Made by a program: the position numbers and the translations under genes. This document shows, piece by piece, positions 1,614 to 45,525 of a stretch of DNA of 64,000 nt. The stretch lies in sequence record NC_047754.1, one strand, 5' to 3'. Numbering within the stretch: the first letter of the stretch is position 1; every line of letters starts with the position of its first letter. Under the pieces are notes generated by a model. The model saw only the letters and a list, made by a program, of their open reading frames with translations. It made no database searches and was not told the origin of the DNA. This stretch comes from Escherichia phage phiAPCEc03.

Positions 1614-3371
1614 ATGGGTTTTTTCGCTGGAAAGTATAGCGATGGTAAGACCGTACTATCTTTAAATACTGAATCTGGGGGTGACATTAATCGTCACTAT
1701 AGTCCAAATAATAATAGTATTTTTCATAGTGATATGCCATTTGTCCTAGTTGATGGTACTTACGAGGCTGGGTTAGGTGATGCCGGAAATGGGTTTTTCG
1801 TATGTCAGATGCCTCCTGATATAGTAAATATTAAATCTAATGATCCTGGTAGAGTTATACTAACTGCTATTGAAATTAACGGCACTCACAGAGCTTTTCT
1901 TAATGGTACTCAGAGTAAGGTTGGTCAAACTATAGTTGCCACTCAAGCTGATCCCTTTAGATCTTTTGCTAGTGTTTCTCAAACTAGTGGATTTGCATTT
2001 GGTAATAGTCTAGCATCTGGAACTTATAATTATAATTCATCGATAGGGCACGAAGAATCTATCTCTAGGAGTGGCACAGGGGGTACTACATTACATAGTA
2101 CCTACCATGGGATAGTTAGGCCCGGTGCGGGAGCTCCTGTAGGTGTTACTGTTGCAGAAGCTTTTGCACAATTAGGGTTTCCTACTAACAGTAGCACAGT
2201 ACCTGTAGATGGGAATAACCCGTACTATTGGGATCCTGGATGGATGTCGCCTCTAGGAGCAGCACATAGAGGGCATGATTGGTTTTATGTTTGCAATTCT
2301 AATATACGTGGGTACGGTGGGGTTAGGCAAGGGCTCCCAGGTAATGTAAATACTATGTACCACGACGGCGGGAACAGATTTGTTTGTAGGGGATCTACTA
2401 CTAATCTAGCTAACCAGTCGGGTGACTCTACAATACTACAGGATTGGTATAATATAACTCCTACTAAGGTTATTTGGTATGTTCTTAACTTAAGGTACTC
2501 AAATGGCGGTATGAGTATTTCCGGCAATCCCTTTACTGGTTCTGATATTCTTATATCTCCTTCTAATTTCATAATTAAAGGGGTAAGTCTCCCGAATACT
2601 GGATATAAATTTATAAATCAGAATGCTTTTGGTAACCTAGGTTACCGTCCTGATATGGAGTATATAGGGAATAACGCAGCGTATACTGGGGTTTTTGGGG
2701 ATACCACGGCAAGGTGTGAACTTGTAGGGTCTAGTAATGGAGGATTATGGTCTCCTGTAGACTATGGTGGAGCTAAATCACAGATTAGCATTTATAGGTT
2801 CGGAGTAGGTAAACAGTGGTATGTAAACTCTAACGATAATACTATTGGTAACGAGCATGGAGTTGTTTGGGGACCATCAGCAGTTCCACTGCGACTTTTT
2901 GGTGGAAATGTAGGTAGTTCTTATATGGGAGATGATATTACTCCTAGCTACCCAGGAACGGGTGATAGATACGTTGGTTTATCAACTATTGGGCTAGGTA
3001 TACCAGGCGGAAATGCTACAGTAATTCTTACTACTGAAGTTATATCAGGTAATCTTAATTGTGCGGGTGTTCCAGCTAATACATGGAATAACGGTGTGTT
3101 TCAAGTGCAAGGAAGAAGAGCATATAGCTATAGCGGCGGGGATGCAATATTCCACCAGATTTTAACGCTACCTGTGGGCTATCTAGTACCTTTTCATACT
3201 ACATCTGCTTTTAGATATACACCTAACAATGCTCTAAGTAGAAACAGTTTTATATATACAGTTAAAAATCTAGGAAATGGAAATGTGGAGTTAGGGGTAG
3301 TTATGCACGTGAGTTTGGGTAGTGCAGTTTTCCTACCTAGATTAAGAGTAACAGTTCAACGCCTTACCTAA
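1614..3371 (+). CDS. receptor-binding tail protein (T5 pb5/Oad-like)
   Basis: 585 aa; N-terminus [24 protein letters not shown] and C-terminus RVTVQRLT resemble my recollection of T5 pb5; Gly/Asn-rich; SD AGGAG; adjacent divergent llp. Confidence 0.7.
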
Positions 3372-5732: not shown

Positions 5733-6949
5733 TGGGTTTTAAAAGCTGGATTACTGAAAAGCTAAATCCGGGTCAACGTATTATAAGAGACATGGAACCA
5801 GTTAGTCATCGCACTAACCGTAAGCCTTTTACCACTGGACAAGCCTACAGTAAAATTGAGATTCTCAATAGAACTGCTAATATGGTTATAGATAGTGCGG
5901 CGGAGTGTTCTTATACTGTCGGAGATAAATATAATATTGTCACGTATGCCAATGGTATCAAGACAAAGACTCTAGACACTCTCTTAAATGTACGACCTAA
6001 TCCATTCATGGATATAAGCACATTCCGTAGACTTGTAGTCACTGACCTACTTTTTGAAGGTTGTGCATACATCTATTGGGATGGCACAGCACTTTACCAT
6101 GTCCCTGCTGCACTAATGCAAGTAGAGGCAGATGCCAATAAGTTTATCAAAAAATTTATATTTAATAATCAGATAGACTATCGCGTAGATGAGATTATCT
6201 TTATAAAGGATAACAGTTACATGCGCGGCACAAATTCTCAAATTTCTGGACAATCTCGTGTTGCTACTGTTATTGATTCTCTTGAGAAGCGTTCTAAGAT
6301 GCTTAACTTTAAAGAGAAATTCCTCGATAACGGAACCGTGATTGGTCTTATTCTTGAGACGGATGAAATCCTGAACAAGAAATTGCGTGAGCGTAAACAA
6401 GAAGAATTACAACTAGATTATAATCCTAGTACTGGTCAGTCCTCTGTCCTGATTCTAGATGGTGGTATGAAAGCTAAACCGTACTCCCAAATATCCTCTT
6501 TTAAAGATCTAGACTTTAAGGAAGACATTGAAGGATTTAATAAATCTATCTGTCTAGCCTTTGGTGTTCCGCAAGTACTGATTGATGGTGGTAATAATGC
6601 GAACATTCGACCAAACATCGAATTGTTCTACTATATGACTATCATCCCTATGCTGAACAAACTGACTAGTTCTCTTACTTTCTTTTTTGGTTATAAGATT
6701 ACTCCTAATACTAAGGAAGTAGCTGCATTAACACCAGATAAAGAATCTGAGGCTAAACATTTAACCTCATTGGTTAATAATGGTATTATAACTGGTAACG
6801 AAGCTCGTTTAGAGCTGAACCTTGAACCTTTAGATGATGAGCAGATGAATAAGATTCGTATTCCTGCTAACGTTGCTGGTTCTGCAACAGGCGTATCTGG
6901 TCAAGAAGGTGGTAGACCTCAAGGTTCCACCGAGGGAGATAAAGAATGA
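5732..6949 (+). CDS. portal protein
   Basis: 405 aa; position after terminase and before protease/capsid; size close to T5 portal pb7. Confidence 0.8.
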   Translation: MGFKSWITEKLNPGQRIIRDMEPVSHRTNRKPFTTGQAYSKIEILNRTANMVIDSAAECSYTVGDKYNIVTYANGIKTKTLDTLLNVRPNPFMDISTFRRLVVTDLLFEGCAYIYWDGTALYHVPAALMQVEADANKFIKKFIFNNQIDYRVDEIIFIKDNSYMRGTNSQISGQSRVATVIDSLEKRSKMLNFKEKFLDNGTVIGLILETDEILNKKLRERKQEELQLDYNPSTGQSSVLILDGGMKAKPYSQISSFKDLDFKEDIEGFNKSICLAFGVPQVLIDGGNNANIRPNIELFYYMTIIPMLNKLTSSLTFFFGYKITPNTKEVAALTPDKESEAKHLTSLVNNGIITGNEARLELNLEPLDDEQMNKIRIPANVAGSATGVSGQEGGRPQGSTEGDKE

Positions 6950-7431
6950 TTGATTATAGTGGTCTAAAGACCATTTTTGGTGAAAAACTGCCAGAATCTC
7001 ATATCTTCTTTGCTACGGTTGCTGCGCATAAATATGTTCCTAGCTACGCTTTTCTGCGTAGAGAACTAGGACTTTCATCTGCGCATACTAACCGTAAAGT
7101 ATGGAAGAAATTTGTAGAGACCTATGGTAAAGCAGTTCCTCCTGCTCCACCATTAACTCTTTCTAAGGATTTAACTGCTAGCATGTCCGTTGAAGAGGGA
7201 GCAGCGTTAACCCTTTCTGTTACTGCAACCGGTGGTATTGGTCCATATACTTATGCATGGACTAAAGATGGTTCTCCTATTCATGGTGCTTCAGGAGCTA
7301 CCTATACTAAGCCTGCAGCAGCTACAAAGTATTCTGGAGCCTATAAAGTAACTGTAACAGATAGTAAGCAAGTAAGCAAGGACTCTGCTACATGTGCTGT
7401 GACAGTTAATCCTACTGTTCCTGGAGGCTAA
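6946..7431 (+). CDS. capsid decoration protein with C-terminal Ig-like domain (T5 pb10-like)
   Basis: 161 aa; C-terminal segment SVEEGAALTLSVTATGGIGPYTYAWTKDGSPIHGASGATYTKPAAATKYSGAYKVTVTD is an Ig-like (Big/I-set type) fold signature; synteny portal-decoration-protease. Confidence 0.6.
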   Translation: MIDYSGLKTIFGEKLPESHIFFATVAAHKYVPSYAFLRRELGLSSAHTNRKVWKKFVETYGKAVPPAPPLTLSKDLTASMSVEEGAALTLSVTATGGIGPYTYAWTKDGSPIHGASGATYTKPAAATKYSGAYKVTVTDSKQVSKDSATCAVTVNPTVPGG

Positions 7432-7434
7432 TAA

Positions 7435-8067
7435 ATGACACAAGCTGCTATTGACTATAACAAGTTAAAATCAGCACACGTTCATTTAGATGCCTATATT
7501 AAATCTATTGATAGCGAATCCAAAGAGGGCGTTGTAAAAATCCGTGGATTCGCTAATACAATTAGTAAAGATCGCGCTGGTGATGTAATTCCTGCTTCTG
7601 CGTGGAAAACATCTAATGCACTTACTAACTATATGAAAAACCCGATTATTCTTTTCGGACACGATCATCGTCGTCCAATCGGTAAGTGTATTGATCTTAA
7701 CCCTACTGAAATGGGTCTCGAAATCGAATGCGAGATCTATGAAAGTTCTGACCCGGCTATCTTTTCACTAATTAAAAACGGTGTACTGAAAACTTTTAGT
7801 ATCGGATTCCGCTGCCTAGATGCAGAGTGGGATGAAGCTACTGATATATTTATTATTAAAGATTTAGAACTATACGAAGTTTCGGTAGTTTCTGTACCTT
7901 GTAATCAGGACTCAACGTTCAATCTCGCTAAGAGCATGAATGGTCATGATTATACTGAATGGCGTAAATCTTTTACTGCAATAAGTTCTAAAGCTGTCCC
8001 AGCTCAAGAACGTAATCTTTCTGAACTAGAAAAACTTGCGATAGCTTTAGGCTACGTTAAAGAATAA
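7435..8067 (+). CDS. prohead maturation protease
   Basis: 210 aa (same as T5 pb11); directly upstream of major capsid protein. Confidence 0.7.
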   Translation: MTQAAIDYNKLKSAHVHLDAYIKSIDSESKEGVVKIRGFANTISKDRAGDVIPASAWKTSNALTNYMKNPIILFGHDHRRPIGKCIDLNPTEMGLEIECEIYESSDPAIFSLIKNGVLKTFSIGFRCLDAEWDEATDIFIIKDLELYEVSVVSVPCNQDSTFNLAKSMNGHDYTEWRKSFTAISSKAVPAQERNLSELEKLAIALGYVKE

Positions 8068-42424: not shown

Positions 42425-43192
42425 TTATTCAGCAGCCGCAGCTTTTGCATCCAGTTTAGCACGCTTAGCGGCACCATCATAGTCCTTAGCAACCAGACCA
42501 CGACGAGACAGCATAGATTTAACACCGCGCTCAGATTTACCAGTTTTCTCAGCGATCTCAGCAACAGTCATGTTAACCAGATCCAGACCTTCTAACAGAT
42601 CTTCACGAGTTTTAGCACTTGAGGTTTCCTGTACCGGCATAGCAGCGATACGACCTTCACGAAGCAGGCTCAGAGCTTTACCACGGATCTGCTTAATATT
42701 GCGACCGAAGTGAGCAGCGATAGCTTCAATAGTAGCACCAGCAACAACCTGATTAACAAAATCAGTTTCTTCATCCGGAGTGAAGGAACGAACAGCAGCA
42801 GCTTTTTCGGTTGGCTTAACAGAAGCGGTCATTTCCAGACTCAGGATCTTACCCTGTACCTGTTTAGCACCGAACTGACCACCAGCTACAGCAGCAGCGA
42901 TTTCAGCATAGGTATACTGACCAGCATGAGCGTTCAGGAAATCAACCAGTTCAGCTTCCTGCTCAGGAGTCCATGGGGATTTCTGTACTTCGTTGGCTTT
43001 CTGTACTTCAAAACCTTCTTTACGCAGTTTAGAACCAACAGAGCGGGCAGTAACATCTTTGCCAGTTTCAGCAGCCAGTTCAGCAGCGATAGCAGCTACT
43101 TGTTCTTGAGAGATTACAGAAACACCCAGAGCAGTGGCTTTTGCTTTCAGAGACTCGGTTACACCTTCTACGTTCCAGTTCAGTTTAGACAT
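42425..43192 (-). CDS. abundant DNA-binding protein with three HTH-like repeats (possibly T5 D5-like)
   Basis: 255 aa; three similar segments (YTYAEIAAAVAGGQFGAKQVQGKILSL / ATIEAIAAHFGRNIKQIRGKALSL / MTVAEIAEKTGKSERGVKSMLSRRGL); high-expression codon usage; Ala-rich. Confidence 0.45.
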   Translation of the reverse strand: MSKLNWNVEGVTESLKAKATALGVSVISQEQVAAIAAELAAETGKDVTARSVGSKLRKEGFEVQKANEVQKSPWTPEQEAELVDFLNAHAGQYTYAEIAAAVAGGQFGAKQVQGKILSLEMTASVKPTEKAAAVRSFTPDEETDFVNQVVAGATIEAIAAHFGRNIKQIRGKALSLLREGRIAAMPVQETSSAKTREDLLEGLDLVNMTVAEIAEKTGKSERGVKSMLSRRGLVAKDYDGAAKRAKLDAKAAAAE

Positions 43193-43958
43193 TATTATTT
43201 TTCTCCAATAGTTCTTTAATCGACAGGATTTCTATCCCATTCGTTTCGGCTTTCTTATAAGATGAGGAAGAACGTTTTGATTCATCCTCACAGATCAGGT
43301 ATTTGACATCTTTGGTAACGGATTTCTTAACCGTATATCCTAGACCTTCTAAATAGTTTGTTGCATCCGTTCTATTTGCAAAGTCTTGCAAAGATCCGGT
43401 AATACATACCGCGATTCCATTTGGCTGGGCAACTAAATCATCAGTAACGACGGTTTTAGCTTTAGCACCAGTTGAGAATTTCCACGGTAATTCGATAACA
43501 TCCTTGCCTTGTGGGGAATTTAGCCAGGCTTTATAGTTTTCTCCAGCCTTGCCGTCAGCCTTCACATCGTGGAAGCTAGTGCAATTTTGGGATAATTTCT
43601 TTGCTGCAACCTCTCCGATTAGAGGGATTCCTAAAGAACCGAGAACTGAACCAAAGTCAATGTCTCCGCGAACTTTAGTATTTAATTCGCTAATTAACTT
43701 AGCGGCAACCTTGCTACCCACGGCTCTAACCAAATCTTCTTCGGTTAGGTAAAATAGTTCTGAAATCTTCGTCAGCTCCAGCTTCTCAATAGTTTTTGGA
43801 CCAAAGCCCTTTAACTTAATTTTTGTACAGAAGTTCTCAATTAACTTACTTGATTGCGCTGGACAGTTGGACTTATTCCGACAGAATAATTGTCCGTTGA
43901 CAAGATCTAGCTTAGAACCACAAGAGGGACATTGTGTTGGAATTTCGATTTTCATCAA
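43185..43958 (-). CDS. ligB: NAD-dependent DNA ligase, C-terminal subunit (Zn finger, HhH, BRCT-like)
   Basis: 257 aa; CPSCGSKLDLVNGQLFCRNKSNC zinc finger near N-terminus, helix-hairpin-helix-like segments; separate ORF from adenylation domain. Confidence 0.7.
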   Translation of the reverse strand: MMKIEIPTQCPSCGSKLDLVNGQLFCRNKSNCPAQSSKLIENFCTKIKLKGFGPKTIEKLELTKISELFYLTEEDLVRAVGSKVAAKLISELNTKVRGDIDFGSVLGSLGIPLIGEVAAKKLSQNCTSFHDVKADGKAGENYKAWLNSPQGKDVIELPWKFSTGAKAKTVVTDDLVAQPNGIAVCITGSLQDFANRTDATNYLEGLGYTVKKSVTKDVKYLICEDESKRSSSSYKKAETNGIEILSIKELLEKNNNV

Positions 43959-43985
43959 AGTTCTTCCTTATCAATTTATATAAAT

Positions 43986-44014
43986 ATTATAGCAAGTATT
44001 TAAGCATTTAGCAA
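43986..44014 (-). promoter_or_regulatory. sigma70 promoter between the ligase halves (-35 TTGCTA, 17 nt, -10 TATAAT)
   Basis: Minus strand TTGCTA-aatgcttaaatacttgc-TATAAT-ATTTATATAAATTGAT. Confidence 0.6.
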
Positions 44015-44157
44015 CTACAATTTTAACTAACTTTGCTTACCCTCGCCATAACTTTCTATCCCTCAACTGAATGATAATAGTATATACCTAAGCGGCGAAA
44101 ATGTCAATAACCACTTTATAATTCCGATATGGTAGATGGGTAGCAAAGGGTTATGTA

Positions 44158-45129
44158 TTAATCGTATACTCGCTCTACTATACACGGGATTACACCACCA
44201 GCACGAATTACTCGAATCTGGCAACCGATCTCTAGATCAAGAGAGTTAATATAATCAACGTTATTAAGAGTCGCCTTAACAATTGTAGCATCATCAATAA
44301 TTACCGGTTCGAAATAACCAACTGGAGTTACTTTACCAGAGGCCCCTACCTGCCATTCAACTTTAGTAAGAGTTGTAATCTCGCCTTCTTCATCCTCTTT
44401 AATAGCGAAGGCTCCACGAGGGAATTTATTAGTCCAGCCCTCTCGGAAGAATTTGTTGTTATCATTAATACGAACAACTTTACCGTCCGTCGGAATCCAT
44501 TTAAAGAAGGAACGCACATTAACAACTGTTAAGAAGTTCTCATTCTCTAGCCAAAGCATATCTTTTAAATATGCTTCTGTAATACCTACAGATTCAGCAG
44601 AACACTGGATACCGTATGCGACGAAGATTAAACCACCTTCCCCTATACGTTGTACGAAATCATCGCTATCTTTGAGGTTAATAGCACCAGAGGCAAAGTT
44701 ACGTTTATTTTCTACTTCTTTTGTAATTAGAACTTCACCAGTGATTTGAGTAGGTACTTTTTGGGAAATCTTTTGAGGGATGTTCAGCAATCTTACGTTG
44801 CTTGTGACATCATTCCCTAGAATACCATTACCACGAGTTAGTGCTTGAACAAATTCGCCATTAATATATAACAGAGAAATCGCACAACCATCTAACTTAT
44901 CAGTTTCTACCTGACCTAACGGGTTGAACGGAGGTTTATCTCCACGATTATAATAAACTTTCTGTAAAGAATACATACGATACAGATGTGGAATATCACC
45001 CTTAGGCCCGATCTCTTCTTCTAATGGAAATCTTTTAATCAGACGATCATATTCTTCGTCAGAGATTAAAGACATACCTTGATAATATGCTTCTTGACAG
45101 CGTTTAATAAAGTCTTTTACATTAGTCAT
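44158..45129 (-). CDS. ligA: NAD-dependent DNA ligase, N-terminal adenylation subunit
   Basis: 323 aa; adenylation motif KLDGCAISLLY (KxDG) and OB-fold region; stops 199 nt before the Zn-finger subunit. Confidence 0.75.
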   Translation of the reverse strand: MTNVKDFIKRCQEAYYQGMSLISDEEYDRLIKRFPLEEEIGPKGDIPHLYRMYSLQKVYYNRGDKPPFNPLGQVETDKLDGCAISLLYINGEFVQALTRGNGILGNDVTSNVRLLNIPQKISQKVPTQITGEVLITKEVENKRNFASGAINLKDSDDFVQRIGEGGLIFVAYGIQCSAESVGITEAYLKDMLWLENENFLTVVNVRSFFKWIPTDGKVVRINDNNKFFREGWTNKFPRGAFAIKEDEEGEITTLTKVEWQVGASGKVTPVGYFEPVIIDDATIVKATLNNVDYINSLDLEIGCQIRVIRAGGVIPCIVERVYD

Positions 45130-45160
45130 TTATTTATATCTCTCATCAATTTATATAAAT

Positions 45161-45189
45161 ATTATATAATAAAACTGAGTTGAAAGCAA
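45161..45189 (-). promoter_or_regulatory. sigma70 promoter for ligA (-35 TTGCTT, 17 nt, -10 TATAAT)
   Basis: Minus strand TTGCTT-tcaactcagttttatta-TATAAT-ATTTATATAAATTGATGAGAG. Confidence 0.6.
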
Positions 45190-45202
45190 ATACATTTATA
45201 AA

Positions 45203-45233
45203 GAAAAAGCCAAGAACTAGGCATTCTTGGCTT
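45203..45233 (-). terminator. intrinsic terminator
   Basis: Hairpin GCCAAGAA-tgcctag-TTCTTGGC followed by TTTTTC on minus strand. Confidence 0.6.
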
Positions 45234-45525
45234 TGAGTTCTTCAGCTCGTTTCTGTACTTCATGTAAAACCTCAGATTCGCTAAGAATCTGTGTAAACGC
45301 ATAGAAAAGCTGTGATGTTGTTTCTAGGGTGTAAGGAAAAGAGAAGCCAGATTTCGTTGGAAACCATTCATCATTAATATCAAGAAGCCAGTAACGAATA
45401 CCCATGTATAGATTCCCACGAAATTCAGATACTGTTAATCTTACTTGTTCTCCCTCCTTCTCCCAAAGTATGATGGACTGGTCATCAACGTGTCCTTCAT
45501 AGTTTTGATTTACCTGTTCGCTCAT
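45217..45525 (-). CDS. hypothetical protein
   Basis: 102 aa ORF with upstream SD; no recognised motif. Confidence 0.45.
   Translation of the reverse strand: MSEQVNQNYEGHVDDQSIILWEKEGEQVRLTVSEFRGNLYMGIRYWLLDINDEWFPTKSGFSFPYTLETTSQLFYAFTQILSESEVLHEVQKRAEELKAKNA

Follow-up and report, generated by a model that had tools for sequence, protein, structure and literature searches.

Why does a T5-like phage encode its DNA ligase in two pieces? The window analysed here, 64,000 nucleotides of Escherichia phage phiAPCEc03 (NC_047754.1), belongs to a T5-like phage (Tequintavirus) and carries the two halves of an NAD+-dependent DNA ligase as adjacent genes (Table 1). The surrounding gene order, D2-like, D3, T5.115, ligA, ligB, D5 and DnaB-like helicase, is that of the T5 replication module. 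The ligase region shares 98.7% identity with Salmonella phage SA001, and a search matched it to 440 phage records, mostly from Tequintavirus and allied T5-like phages. Coverage of the region is 80% or more in 429 of these 440 records, and the two-gene arrangement is kept throughout the records and loci inspected (>100 loci, ~440 genomes), which excludes sequencing error as the cause of the split. Among annotated subunits of Tequintavirus and Epseptimavirus, many share 95-99% protein identity with those of phiAPCEc03, and the subunits of Providencia phage PR1 share 54-55%. The split ligase is the already known LigA/LigB two-gene NAD-dependent DNA ligase of T5-like phages, and it is ordinary for the family. 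In GenBank its halves are annotated as subunits A and B of the ligase in T5 and ~440 phages, the arrangement has been annotated since 2005 and is published for T5, and the name "split NAD+-dependent ligase" appears in the literature of 2005-2006. With that long annotation, and with an orthologue solved as a heterodimer on nicked DNA, the locus has little discovery value as such.

Which parts of the enzyme does each gene encode? Subunit A matches the Pfam families DNA_ligase_aden (PF01653, E 2.5e-23) and, following it, DNA_ligase_OB (PF03120, E 3.8e-22, residues 252-321), and its C-terminus, ...IPCIVERVYD*, lies just past the OB fold. The KxDG motif is at K78, and K78-L-D-G81 is invariant in the alignment of subunit A homologues, as are Y15, Y16 and D24 within residues 14-28 (AYYQGMSLISDEEYD). 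This domain Ia stretch aligns with PR1 chain A from residue 4, and we take it to be the equivalent of the YH...D..YD NAD+-contact pattern in domain Ia of E. coli LigA. The ligB ORF as mechanically called spans 43185..43958 and begins with a TTG at 43958; the true start is likely the ATG three nucleotides downstream, judging from the sequence, and PR1 chain B begins at the equivalent Met. The 199 bp originally reported between the ORFs is accordingly correct when counted from the TTG and becomes 202 nt from the likely ATG. From that ATG the N-terminus of subunit B reads MKIEIPTQCPSC, and a Cys4 zinc finger, HhH and BRCT domains are all found in it: the zinc-finger cysteines C9, C12, C25 and C31 are invariant among homologues, on two of which PF03119 is precomputed; BRCT is matched by PF00533 (E 8.7e-8); and the HhH match is weak, falling under the Pfam cutoff (24.5 bits vs 27). 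An AlphaFold model of subunit B (pLDDT 82) has structural matches in 9hu3_B (E 4e-25) and 2owo_A (E 6.5e-7).

Table 1. Features of the split ligase locus and its spacer (positions in the 64,000-nucleotide window)
Feature	Position	Strand	Basis
ligA promoter, TTGCTT-17-TATAAT, T5 consensus	45161..45189	-	sequence
ligA half, subunit A, 323 aa; domain Ia, adenylation (NTase), OB	44158..45129	-	ORF list, Pfam
Intercistronic spacer, 202 nt, ligA stop to ligB ATG	43956..44157	-	sequence
Predicted promoter P1, TTGACA-17-TATACT, 11/12 consensus match, sigma-70	44079..44107	-	consensus scan and conservation
Predicted promoter P2, TTGCTA-17-TGcTATAAT, TG before -10, T5 early-promoter type	43986..44014	-	consensus scan, AKFV33 annotation, conservation
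Shine-Dalgarno AGGAAG, 7 nt 5' of ligB ATG	43963..43968	-	read from sequence
ligB half, subunit B, 256 aa from likely ATG at 43955; Cys4 Zn finger, HhH, BRCT	43185..43955	-	ORF list, Pfam
ligB stop/D5 start overlap, 8 nt, ATGTCTAA	43185..43192	-	sequence

Taken together, the two subunits contain the six modules of the one-chain E. coli LigA (PDB 2OWO) in the same order: Ia, NTase, OB, Zn, HhH and BRCT. Unlike LigA, the phage chain is broken between OB and Zn, it is more compact (323+256 = 579 aa vs 671 aa) and identity is only ~24-28%. ORFs, Pfam domains and a separate Shine-Dalgarno sequence and ATG all bear out the original prediction that the ligase is divided between OB and zinc finger into two separately translated genes. 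All 101 split loci examined share one break point, in the OB-Zn linker, and its position is constant in every relative examined, down to ~40% identity. Across the 101 loci subunit A ends 0-15 aa past the OB domain, and subunit B starts 7-14 residues before the first zinc cysteine at most junctions with a placeable ATG. Stand-alone A-only proteins form at least 54 clusters at 50% identity, and 120 of the 120 top B matches are stand-alone proteins.

Do the two products make one enzyme? Very probably, the product of the two ORFs is the NAD+-dependent DNA ligase that T5-like phages (Demerecviridae) make as a heterodimer. PDB entry 9HU3, released in 2026, is titled 'PR1 phage heterodimeric DNA ligase in complex with 21-mer nicked DNA'. 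Chains A and B of 9HU3/9I5I show 100% identity to the ligA and ligB of Providencia phage PR1, and the two ORFs of the window match them at E 5e-103 and 6e-80. The evidence for the PR1 heterodimer consists of the entry title and the chain sequences; a literature search on 9HU3 and on the PR1 ligase returned no usable paper. At the gene level, phiAPCEc03 has the T5-type arrangement: orthologues of the PR1 and the T5 subunits, encoded by two genes whose break falls in the OB-Zn linker. T5 LigA/LigB (T5 genome, Wang et al. 2005) and PR1 (9HU3/9I5I) have the same two ORFs, break point, neighbourhood and spacer promoters, and the differences are minor, some relatives having small ORFs ahead of ligA or a homing endonuclease after it. 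Nothing of substance separates the ligase described here from these systems; it is another member. Gene anatomy, PR1 orthology, purifying selection and conservation of break point and promoters were observed directly, and by analogy with the PR1 orthologue, 54-55% identical, the subunits of this phage would bind each other and seal nicks. Assembly from two polypeptides, as first proposed for this locus, is in this way supported through PR1.

We propose that an ancestral one-piece T5-type ligase broke within the short OB-Zn linker, so that no sequence would have been lost. Early transcription by host sigma-70, begun at the ligA promoter, may continue into ligB, and two tandem spacer promoters would add transcription of ligB and the translationally coupled D5. 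The subunits would be translated separately and then assemble non-covalently around the nick, with subunit A (Ia-NTase-OB), which carries the catalytic lysine, reacting with NAD+ and subunit B (Zn-HhH-BRCT) providing the DNA-clamping domains that form the C-terminal part of one-chain LigA. The T5-type ligase is a clean natural example of an enzyme tolerating a chain break at a domain linker.

Could the halves instead have parted in function, with subunit A a minimal ligase that works by itself and subunit B, together with D5, mainly a BRCT/HhH DNA-binding or recruitment factor? Such a division would suit the two dedicated, highly conserved promoters of ligB, its translational coupling to D5 and not to ligA, and the Vibrio phages, in which up to three genes lie between the halves. 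We nevertheless regard it as improbable. The truncated Ia-NTase-OB fragment of the NAD+-dependent ligase LigN self-adenylates but does not ligate (PMC1684257), A and B are found together, on one strand and in unchanged order, wherever a locus is long enough to hold both, and the title of the PR1 entry places the heterodimer on nicked DNA. Much harder still to credit is a decayed, non-functional ligase gene in a phage that depends on host LigA: two fragments are by default read as a broken gene, and the hosts of T5-like phages do have LigA, but both halves are under strong purifying selection (codon-position diversity 0.158 at position 3 vs 0.014 at position 2 for ligA, and 0.090 vs 0.010 for ligB), the catalytic and zinc-binding residues are invariant in relatives down to ~47-51% identity, all of the >100 loci and ~440 genomes keep the arrangement, and the PR1 orthologue is in the PDB, crystallised as an enzyme-DNA complex.

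Equally remote is the idea that the halves end up in one polypeptide after all, through stop-codon read-through, frameshifting, bypass, intron splicing or split-intein trans-splicing. Translational bypassing and group I introns occur in phages, and the halves lie side by side on one strand, in the order of the domains. Against this, subunit A stops after the OB domain, the spacer holds ~5 stop codons in each of the three frames, the ligB frame differs from that of ligA, and ligB has its own Shine-Dalgarno sequence and ATG. The gap between the halves ranges from 52 nt to 1374 nt in relatives, sometimes with whole genes inside; its variable length and frame, together with the stops, rule out read-through or frameshifting. 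An Rfam search of the spacer at E<=10 gave no intron or RNA family, returning chance-level miRNA and snRNA matches only, and the predicted RNA fold is no better than shuffles (z-score -0.74), so neither an intron nor another RNA element is indicated. A split intein is rejected by comparison with fused relatives: the subunits end and begin exactly at the linker, without intein-sized extra sequence and with no extra residues on either side of the break. The spacer thus shows no group I intron, split intein or recoding site, and the solved PR1 enzyme is two chains. A single fused protein or an intact gene hidden by sequencing error, either of which would have spoken against the original prediction, is excluded by the stops and the 429 of 440 records.

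What, then, is the spacer? It is a tandem promoter region, and a mobile-element scar is not supported. Tequintaviruses show almost no variation in it (pi 0.012 overall and 0.0046 over the promoter-bearing 142 nt), and the tandem promoter region varies less than second codon positions. The promoter consensus scan by itself gave no excess over chance (5 sites vs 6.3 expected in a 2.4 kb region). P1, the stronger sigma-70 match of the two, is kept in Klebsiella, L036 and Providencia T5-like phages; P2 is annotated in phage AKFV33 and kept across genera; and both persist in genera where identity to the ligase proteins of this phage is only 52-72%. It was P2 that had been predicted in the spacer from the outset, with independent expression of ligB as one option; that ligB has a promoter of its own is supported by the cross-genus conservation and the AKFV33 annotation. 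A 22-nt module, TATAATATTTATATAAATTGAT, is identical at the ligA promoter (45145..45166) and P2 (43970..43991). Published maps of T5 transcription starts, and mentions of the P2 sequence, were sought in the literature without usable result.

Since the ligB stop overlaps the D5 start, ligB and D5 form one unit downstream of P1 and P2, and we infer that the spacer promoters mainly serve this ligB-D5 operon. No terminator-like site was found between the halves in this phage, so transcription from the ligA promoter can reach ligB and probably reads through into it. For PR1, both a promoter and a terminator are annotated in GenBank inside the stretch spanning the two ligase genes, so read-through may not hold for all of these phages. 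Some Tequintaviruses have insertions of 180-270 bp; these were considered as changes to the spacer and set aside, since they are positioned upstream of ligA and outside the spacer.

In some relatives the junction is a site occupied by mobile nuclease genes. Salmonella phage SP3 and Klebsiella phage AmPh_EK80 carry divergent GIY-YIG homing endonuclease genes exactly at the ligA stop codon (GIY-YIG 26 bits; PHROG homing endonuclease 7.6e-13), the SP3 type being rare (3 records). In several environmental contigs the gap holds a T5orf172 gene, of the GIY-YIG superfamily, and in Vibrio phages it holds other cargo. Aligning genomes with and without the endonuclease revealed a clean insertion, with the whole promoter spacer retained beside it. 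In the Klebsiella phages spacer homology restarts ~0-10 nt past the endonuclease, and in SP3 the endonuclease ORF extends ~8 codons into spacer sequence. The 3' end of SP3 ligA includes a diverged stretch of ~220 nt, which looks like a co-conversion tract. The spacer of phiAPCEc03 contains no ORF and no endonuclease-derived sequence. The footprint idea, in which a lost mobile element left the spacer behind, is therefore not supported: the endonuclease inserts cleanly at the ligA stop and leaves the spacer intact.

Did an endonuclease nonetheless make the split long ago? The GIY-YIG genes at the ligA stop, the ~220-nt tract of SP3 and the T5orf172 and Vibrio gap cargo are hints in this direction. 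We tentatively raise the idea, on balance a doubtful one, that the junction is a live homing site and that the family-wide split began as an old insertion of a free-standing GIY-YIG endonuclease into the OB-Zn linker of a one-piece T5-type ligase, a form that survives in uncultured T5-like phages, the endonuclease being later lost from most lineages and the tandem promoter recruited to the gap. Because the endonuclease adjoins an independently conserved promoter spacer, its role as the cause of the split is not demonstrable. T4-like phages offer a parallel in their "genes in pieces", such as nrdA of Aeh1, split by mobE, and T4 gp39/gp60 with mobA; for gene 43A/43B, a seg endonuclease is present in Aeromonas phage 25 and untranslated intercistronic sequence in 44RR (PMC2988022). 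In both cases an essential enzyme of DNA metabolism is divided, at a boundary between domains, into two reassembling polypeptides; at the split, some members have a free-standing homing endonuclease and others untranslated spacer only. The T4-like splits, however, are sporadic, whereas that of the T5-type ligase is ancient and family-wide, and the junction endonuclease is rare in T5-like phages (the three SP3-type records).

One-piece ligases in uncultured relatives, the junction endonucleases and a spacer more conserved than coding sequence could aid studies of how split replication enzymes originate and are co-expressed. The unsplit forms are compact ligases of 552-586 aa, found in T5-like synteny on four independent metagenomic contigs from uncultured phages. 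An IMG/VR locus search with one fused protein, P0034, returned no loci, and a locus search with P0072 returned split relatives or distant classical ligases only. In a neighbor-joining tree of concatenated A and B sequences, the fused forms branch early and are interleaved with split forms, at bootstrap values of 32-66%.

The split NAD-dependent ligase of this window is the LigA/LigB heterodimer already known from T5-like phages and is not new; ligA and ligB are named as subunits in a paper on the T5 helicase (PMC3632103). The modestly new part is comparative, namely fused relatives, endonucleases at the junction and an ultra-conserved tandem promoter. The original prediction of a ligase divided between two ORFs 199 bp apart holds, both ORFs being in place with fitting Pfam domains. 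In subunit A, encoded by ligA, Pfam recognises the adenylation domain of NAD ligases at E 2.5e-23 and their OB domain at E 3.8e-22; the KxDG motif lies at K78. Subunit B, encoded by ligB, matches BRCT (E 8.7e-8) and, weakly, HhH, and its Zn-finger cysteines C9, C12, C25 and C31 are invariant in 26 homologues. The ATG preceded by AGGAAG is most likely the start of the second ORF, giving a 256-aa protein with the N-terminus MKIEIPTQCPSC; the gap between the genes is 199 nt to the TTG or 202 nt to the ATG. The ligase region is 98.7% identical to that of Salmonella phage vB_SalS_SA001 and has matches in 440 phage records, of which nearly all belong to Salmonella and Escherichia phages and 429 cover at least 80% of the region. 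The split as an assembly error was excluded.

Coordinates of features at the ligase locus of the window and at related loci
Feature	Source	Coordinates	Strand	Remark
ligA ORF, 323 aa	window	44158..45129	minus	
Second ORF (ligB), 257 aa counted from TTG	window	43185..43958	minus	
AGGAAG	window	43963..43968	minus	7 nt upstream of ATG at 43955
P1, TTGACA-17-TATACT	window	44107..44079	minus (gene strand)	spacer promoter
P2, TTGCTA-17-TATAAT with upstream TG	window	44014..43986	minus (gene strand)	spacer promoter
22-nt module, ligA promoter	window	45145..45166	minus	
22-nt module, ligB promoter	window	43970..43991	minus	
Conserved stretch between P1 and P2	window	44030..44075	minus	
Terminator-like hairpin	window	45206..45234	minus	12-bp stem and T-run
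Extra small ORF	L002	2531..2803		corresponds to window ~45130..45145
Extra small ORF	L003	2523..2711		corresponds to window ~45130..45145
219-aa ORF between halves	Klebsiella phage AmPh_EK80 (L005)	1956..2615		GIY-YIG, 25.7 bits
218-aa ORF between halves	Salmonella phage SP3 (L027, MG387042)	6750..7606		GIY-YIG, 26.0 bits
Two small genes in gap	L053	3451..4103		environmental T5-like contig
Two small genes in gap	L079	2045..2748		environmental T5-like contig
Two small genes in gap	L085	6918..7561		environmental T5-like contig
Fused ligase loci	L114-L119			metagenomic contigs: JGI 3300051786, 3300034073, 3300035670; Logan ERR15116721; ENA ERZ925380

Do the halves act as one enzyme? When the two halves were concatenated and searched against PDB sequences, 9HU3 and 9I5I were retrieved; their chain A, a 339-aa 'DNA ligase (NAD(+))', matches ligA residues 4-323 (E 5e-103), and their chain B, a 248-aa 'DNA ligase subunit B', matches ligB (E 6e-80). 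These chains are 100% identical to the ligase gene products of the T5-like Providencia phage vB_PreS_PR1 and 54-55% identical to the window's proteins; modelled with AlphaFold (mean pLDDT 82), subunit B also has 9hu3_B as its best structural match. The title of 9HU3, released 2026-01-14, reads 'PR1 phage heterodimeric DNA ligase in complex with 21-mer nicked DNA containing phage nick sequence'. In another NAD+ ligase, the Ia-NTase-OB fragment without Zn-HhH-BRCT self-adenylates but cannot ligate (PMC1684257). Because the PR1 orthologue is heterodimeric on nicked DNA and the fragment biochemistry agrees, we infer by orthology that the phiAPCEc03 subunits work as a heterodimer, and the predicted assembly of the enzyme from two polypeptides is thereby upheld. 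Subunit A would perform the nucleotidyl-transfer chemistry, and subunit B would complete the clamp around the nick.

Could a single ligase chain be made after all, by read-through, frameshifting, an intron or an intein? Against this, the spacer holds about 5 stops in each frame, ligB lies in a different frame from ligA, and the gap in relatives varies from 52 nt to 1374 nt, sometimes with whole genes inside. The suggestion of an intron remnant found no backing: Rfam returned no intron or credible RNA family in the spacer, and its RNA fold is no better than shuffles (z -0.74). The junction in unsplit relatives reads ...IIPKIVSIISKGQEDIIIPTSCPCCGS, whereas split forms end ...IPCIVERVYD* and restart at the subunit B N-terminus, which places the break inside the short OB-Zn linker. 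An intein was rejected, there being no intein-sized extra sequence at the junction compared with unsplit relatives. A pseudogene is excluded by selection, as diversity among 27 Tequintavirus sequences is far higher at codon position 3 than at position 2 (0.158 versus 0.014 in ligA; 0.090 versus 0.010 in ligB).

How old and how widespread is the split? We compared 86 loci from GenBank and IMG/VR, to which 22 were then added. In all relatives of 99% to ~40% identity, among them phages of Klebsiella, Providencia and Vibrio as well as dozens of environmental contigs, subunit A ends 0-15 residues past the OB fold, and subunit B is encoded separately, downstream on the same strand; it starts 7-14 residues ahead of the first Zn cysteine at most junctions with a placeable upstream ATG. 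The order D2-like, D3, T5.115, ligA, ligB, D5, helicase is kept wherever a contig shows the flanks. Among 1.84 billion representative proteins scanned, A-only proteins (304-339 aa) formed at least 54 clusters; the best 120 subunit B matches are all stand-alone and ~250 aa, except two shorter partial sequences. Phage ligases outside the T5-like split family are one-piece and only ~25% identical. The same scan also found ~14 compact fused ligases that are 552-586 aa long and share 36-46% identity with subunit A. Four were traced to contigs of different samples, giving six loci with a ligase gene of 552-576 aa. Here the single gene lies in T5-like synteny, with D3-like and D2-like genes upstream and D5-like and DnaB-like helicase genes downstream; beyond the helicase, L114-L117 have primase, and L115 and L117 also PolA. 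In a neighbor-joining tree of concatenated halves, fused forms are early and interleaved with split subclades, at bootstrap values of only 32-66%. The near-identical break position favours one split rather than several. L114 further carries NAMPT-like and PRPP-synthetase genes (NAD salvage), a few kb away from its NAD-dependent ligase.

The spacer had further been suggested as a possible footprint of a lost mobile element. Mobile genes do occupy the gap in relatives: the ORFs of AmPh_EK80 and SP3 exceed the GIY-YIG cutoff of 22.6 bits, and the former also matches PHROG homing-endonuclease families (7.6e-13). Their starts (MNNSGIY and MNSGIY) overlap the last codons of ligA, the two proteins are barely alignable, and the SP3 element is carried by only 3 phage records. 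In SP3, the final ~220 nt of ligA are 70-77% identical and the remainder 92-100%, as a co-conversion tract would be expected to look. Among the environmental gap genes, one in L079 encodes a T5orf172 (GIY-YIG-superfamily) domain and has a nearly identical counterpart in L085; the L053 counterpart has no Pfam match, and its neighbour encodes a DUF6552 protein. The Vibrio phage gap holds a DprA-like gene and one or two more small ORFs. These cases mark the ligA-ligB junction as a site where mobile nuclease genes have repeatedly landed, a situation like that of gene 43A/43B in Aeromonas phages 25 and 44RR (PMC2988022). The footprint reading fails, however: insertion is exactly at the ligA stop codon, and in carriers the full spacer with P1 and P2 continues unchanged beside the endonuclease, so the window's 199-nt spacer was rejected as an endonuclease remnant.

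What, then, is in the spacer? A promoter scan alone performs at chance level for the ligase region. P1 and P2 are invariant columns in an alignment reaching Providencia phages, and the record of the T5-like relative AKFV33 has one promoter annotated in the spacer and a second before ligA, citing the T5 consensus of Wang et al. 2005; the near-consensus promoter originally proposed corresponds to P2. Within Tequintavirus, second codon positions are more variable than the spacer, whose diversity is 0.012 overall and 0.0046 over its last 142 nt, where 7 columns vary. From what is known of T5 promoters, two of this type would, together with the sequence upstream and the initially transcribed region of each, take up nearly all of the 142-nt stretch. 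Because the end of ligB and the beginning of D5 overlap by 8 nt, P1 and P2 would drive a ligB-D5 unit, and since no terminator-like site was found between ligA and ligB, ligA transcripts probably read through into ligB. The gap is only 52-90 nt in environmental relatives; thus, the promoter-bearing spacer belongs to the enterobacterial branch and not to the split as such.

An identical 22-nt module, TATAATATTTATATAAATTGAT, occurs in the ligA and ligB promoters, spanning the -10 hexamer and initially transcribed region and including the 12-bp palindrome ATTTATATAAAT. Nowhere else in the 64-kb window does it occur, even with 3 mismatches allowed; both copies are found again in other Tequintaviruses, and the module could co-regulate the subunits. 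Between P1 and P2, Tequintavirus and Klebsiella phages share the conserved stretch ATTATCATTCAGTTGAGGGATAGAAAGTTATGGCGAG, which holds GAGG followed by an 8-codon mini-ORF (MARVSKVS). As the peptide is not kept in other genera, the stretch is probably promoter or leader sequence. The hairpin just upstream of the ligA promoter closes the T5.115-like gene and is an annotated terminator in AKFV33. In some Tequintaviruses (SP1a, Kenya-K38 and others), an additional small ORF, 90 or 62 aa long, separates the ligA promoter from ligA and accounts for the 180-270 bp length differences among BLAST matches. Two public sequences also bear wrong labels: a ligB orthologue (P0190) sits on a 115-kb contig filed as Brucella melitensis, probably phage sequence in a bacterial assembly, and the truncated ligB of Salmonella phage STWB21 (P0216) is misnamed 'tail completion protein'.
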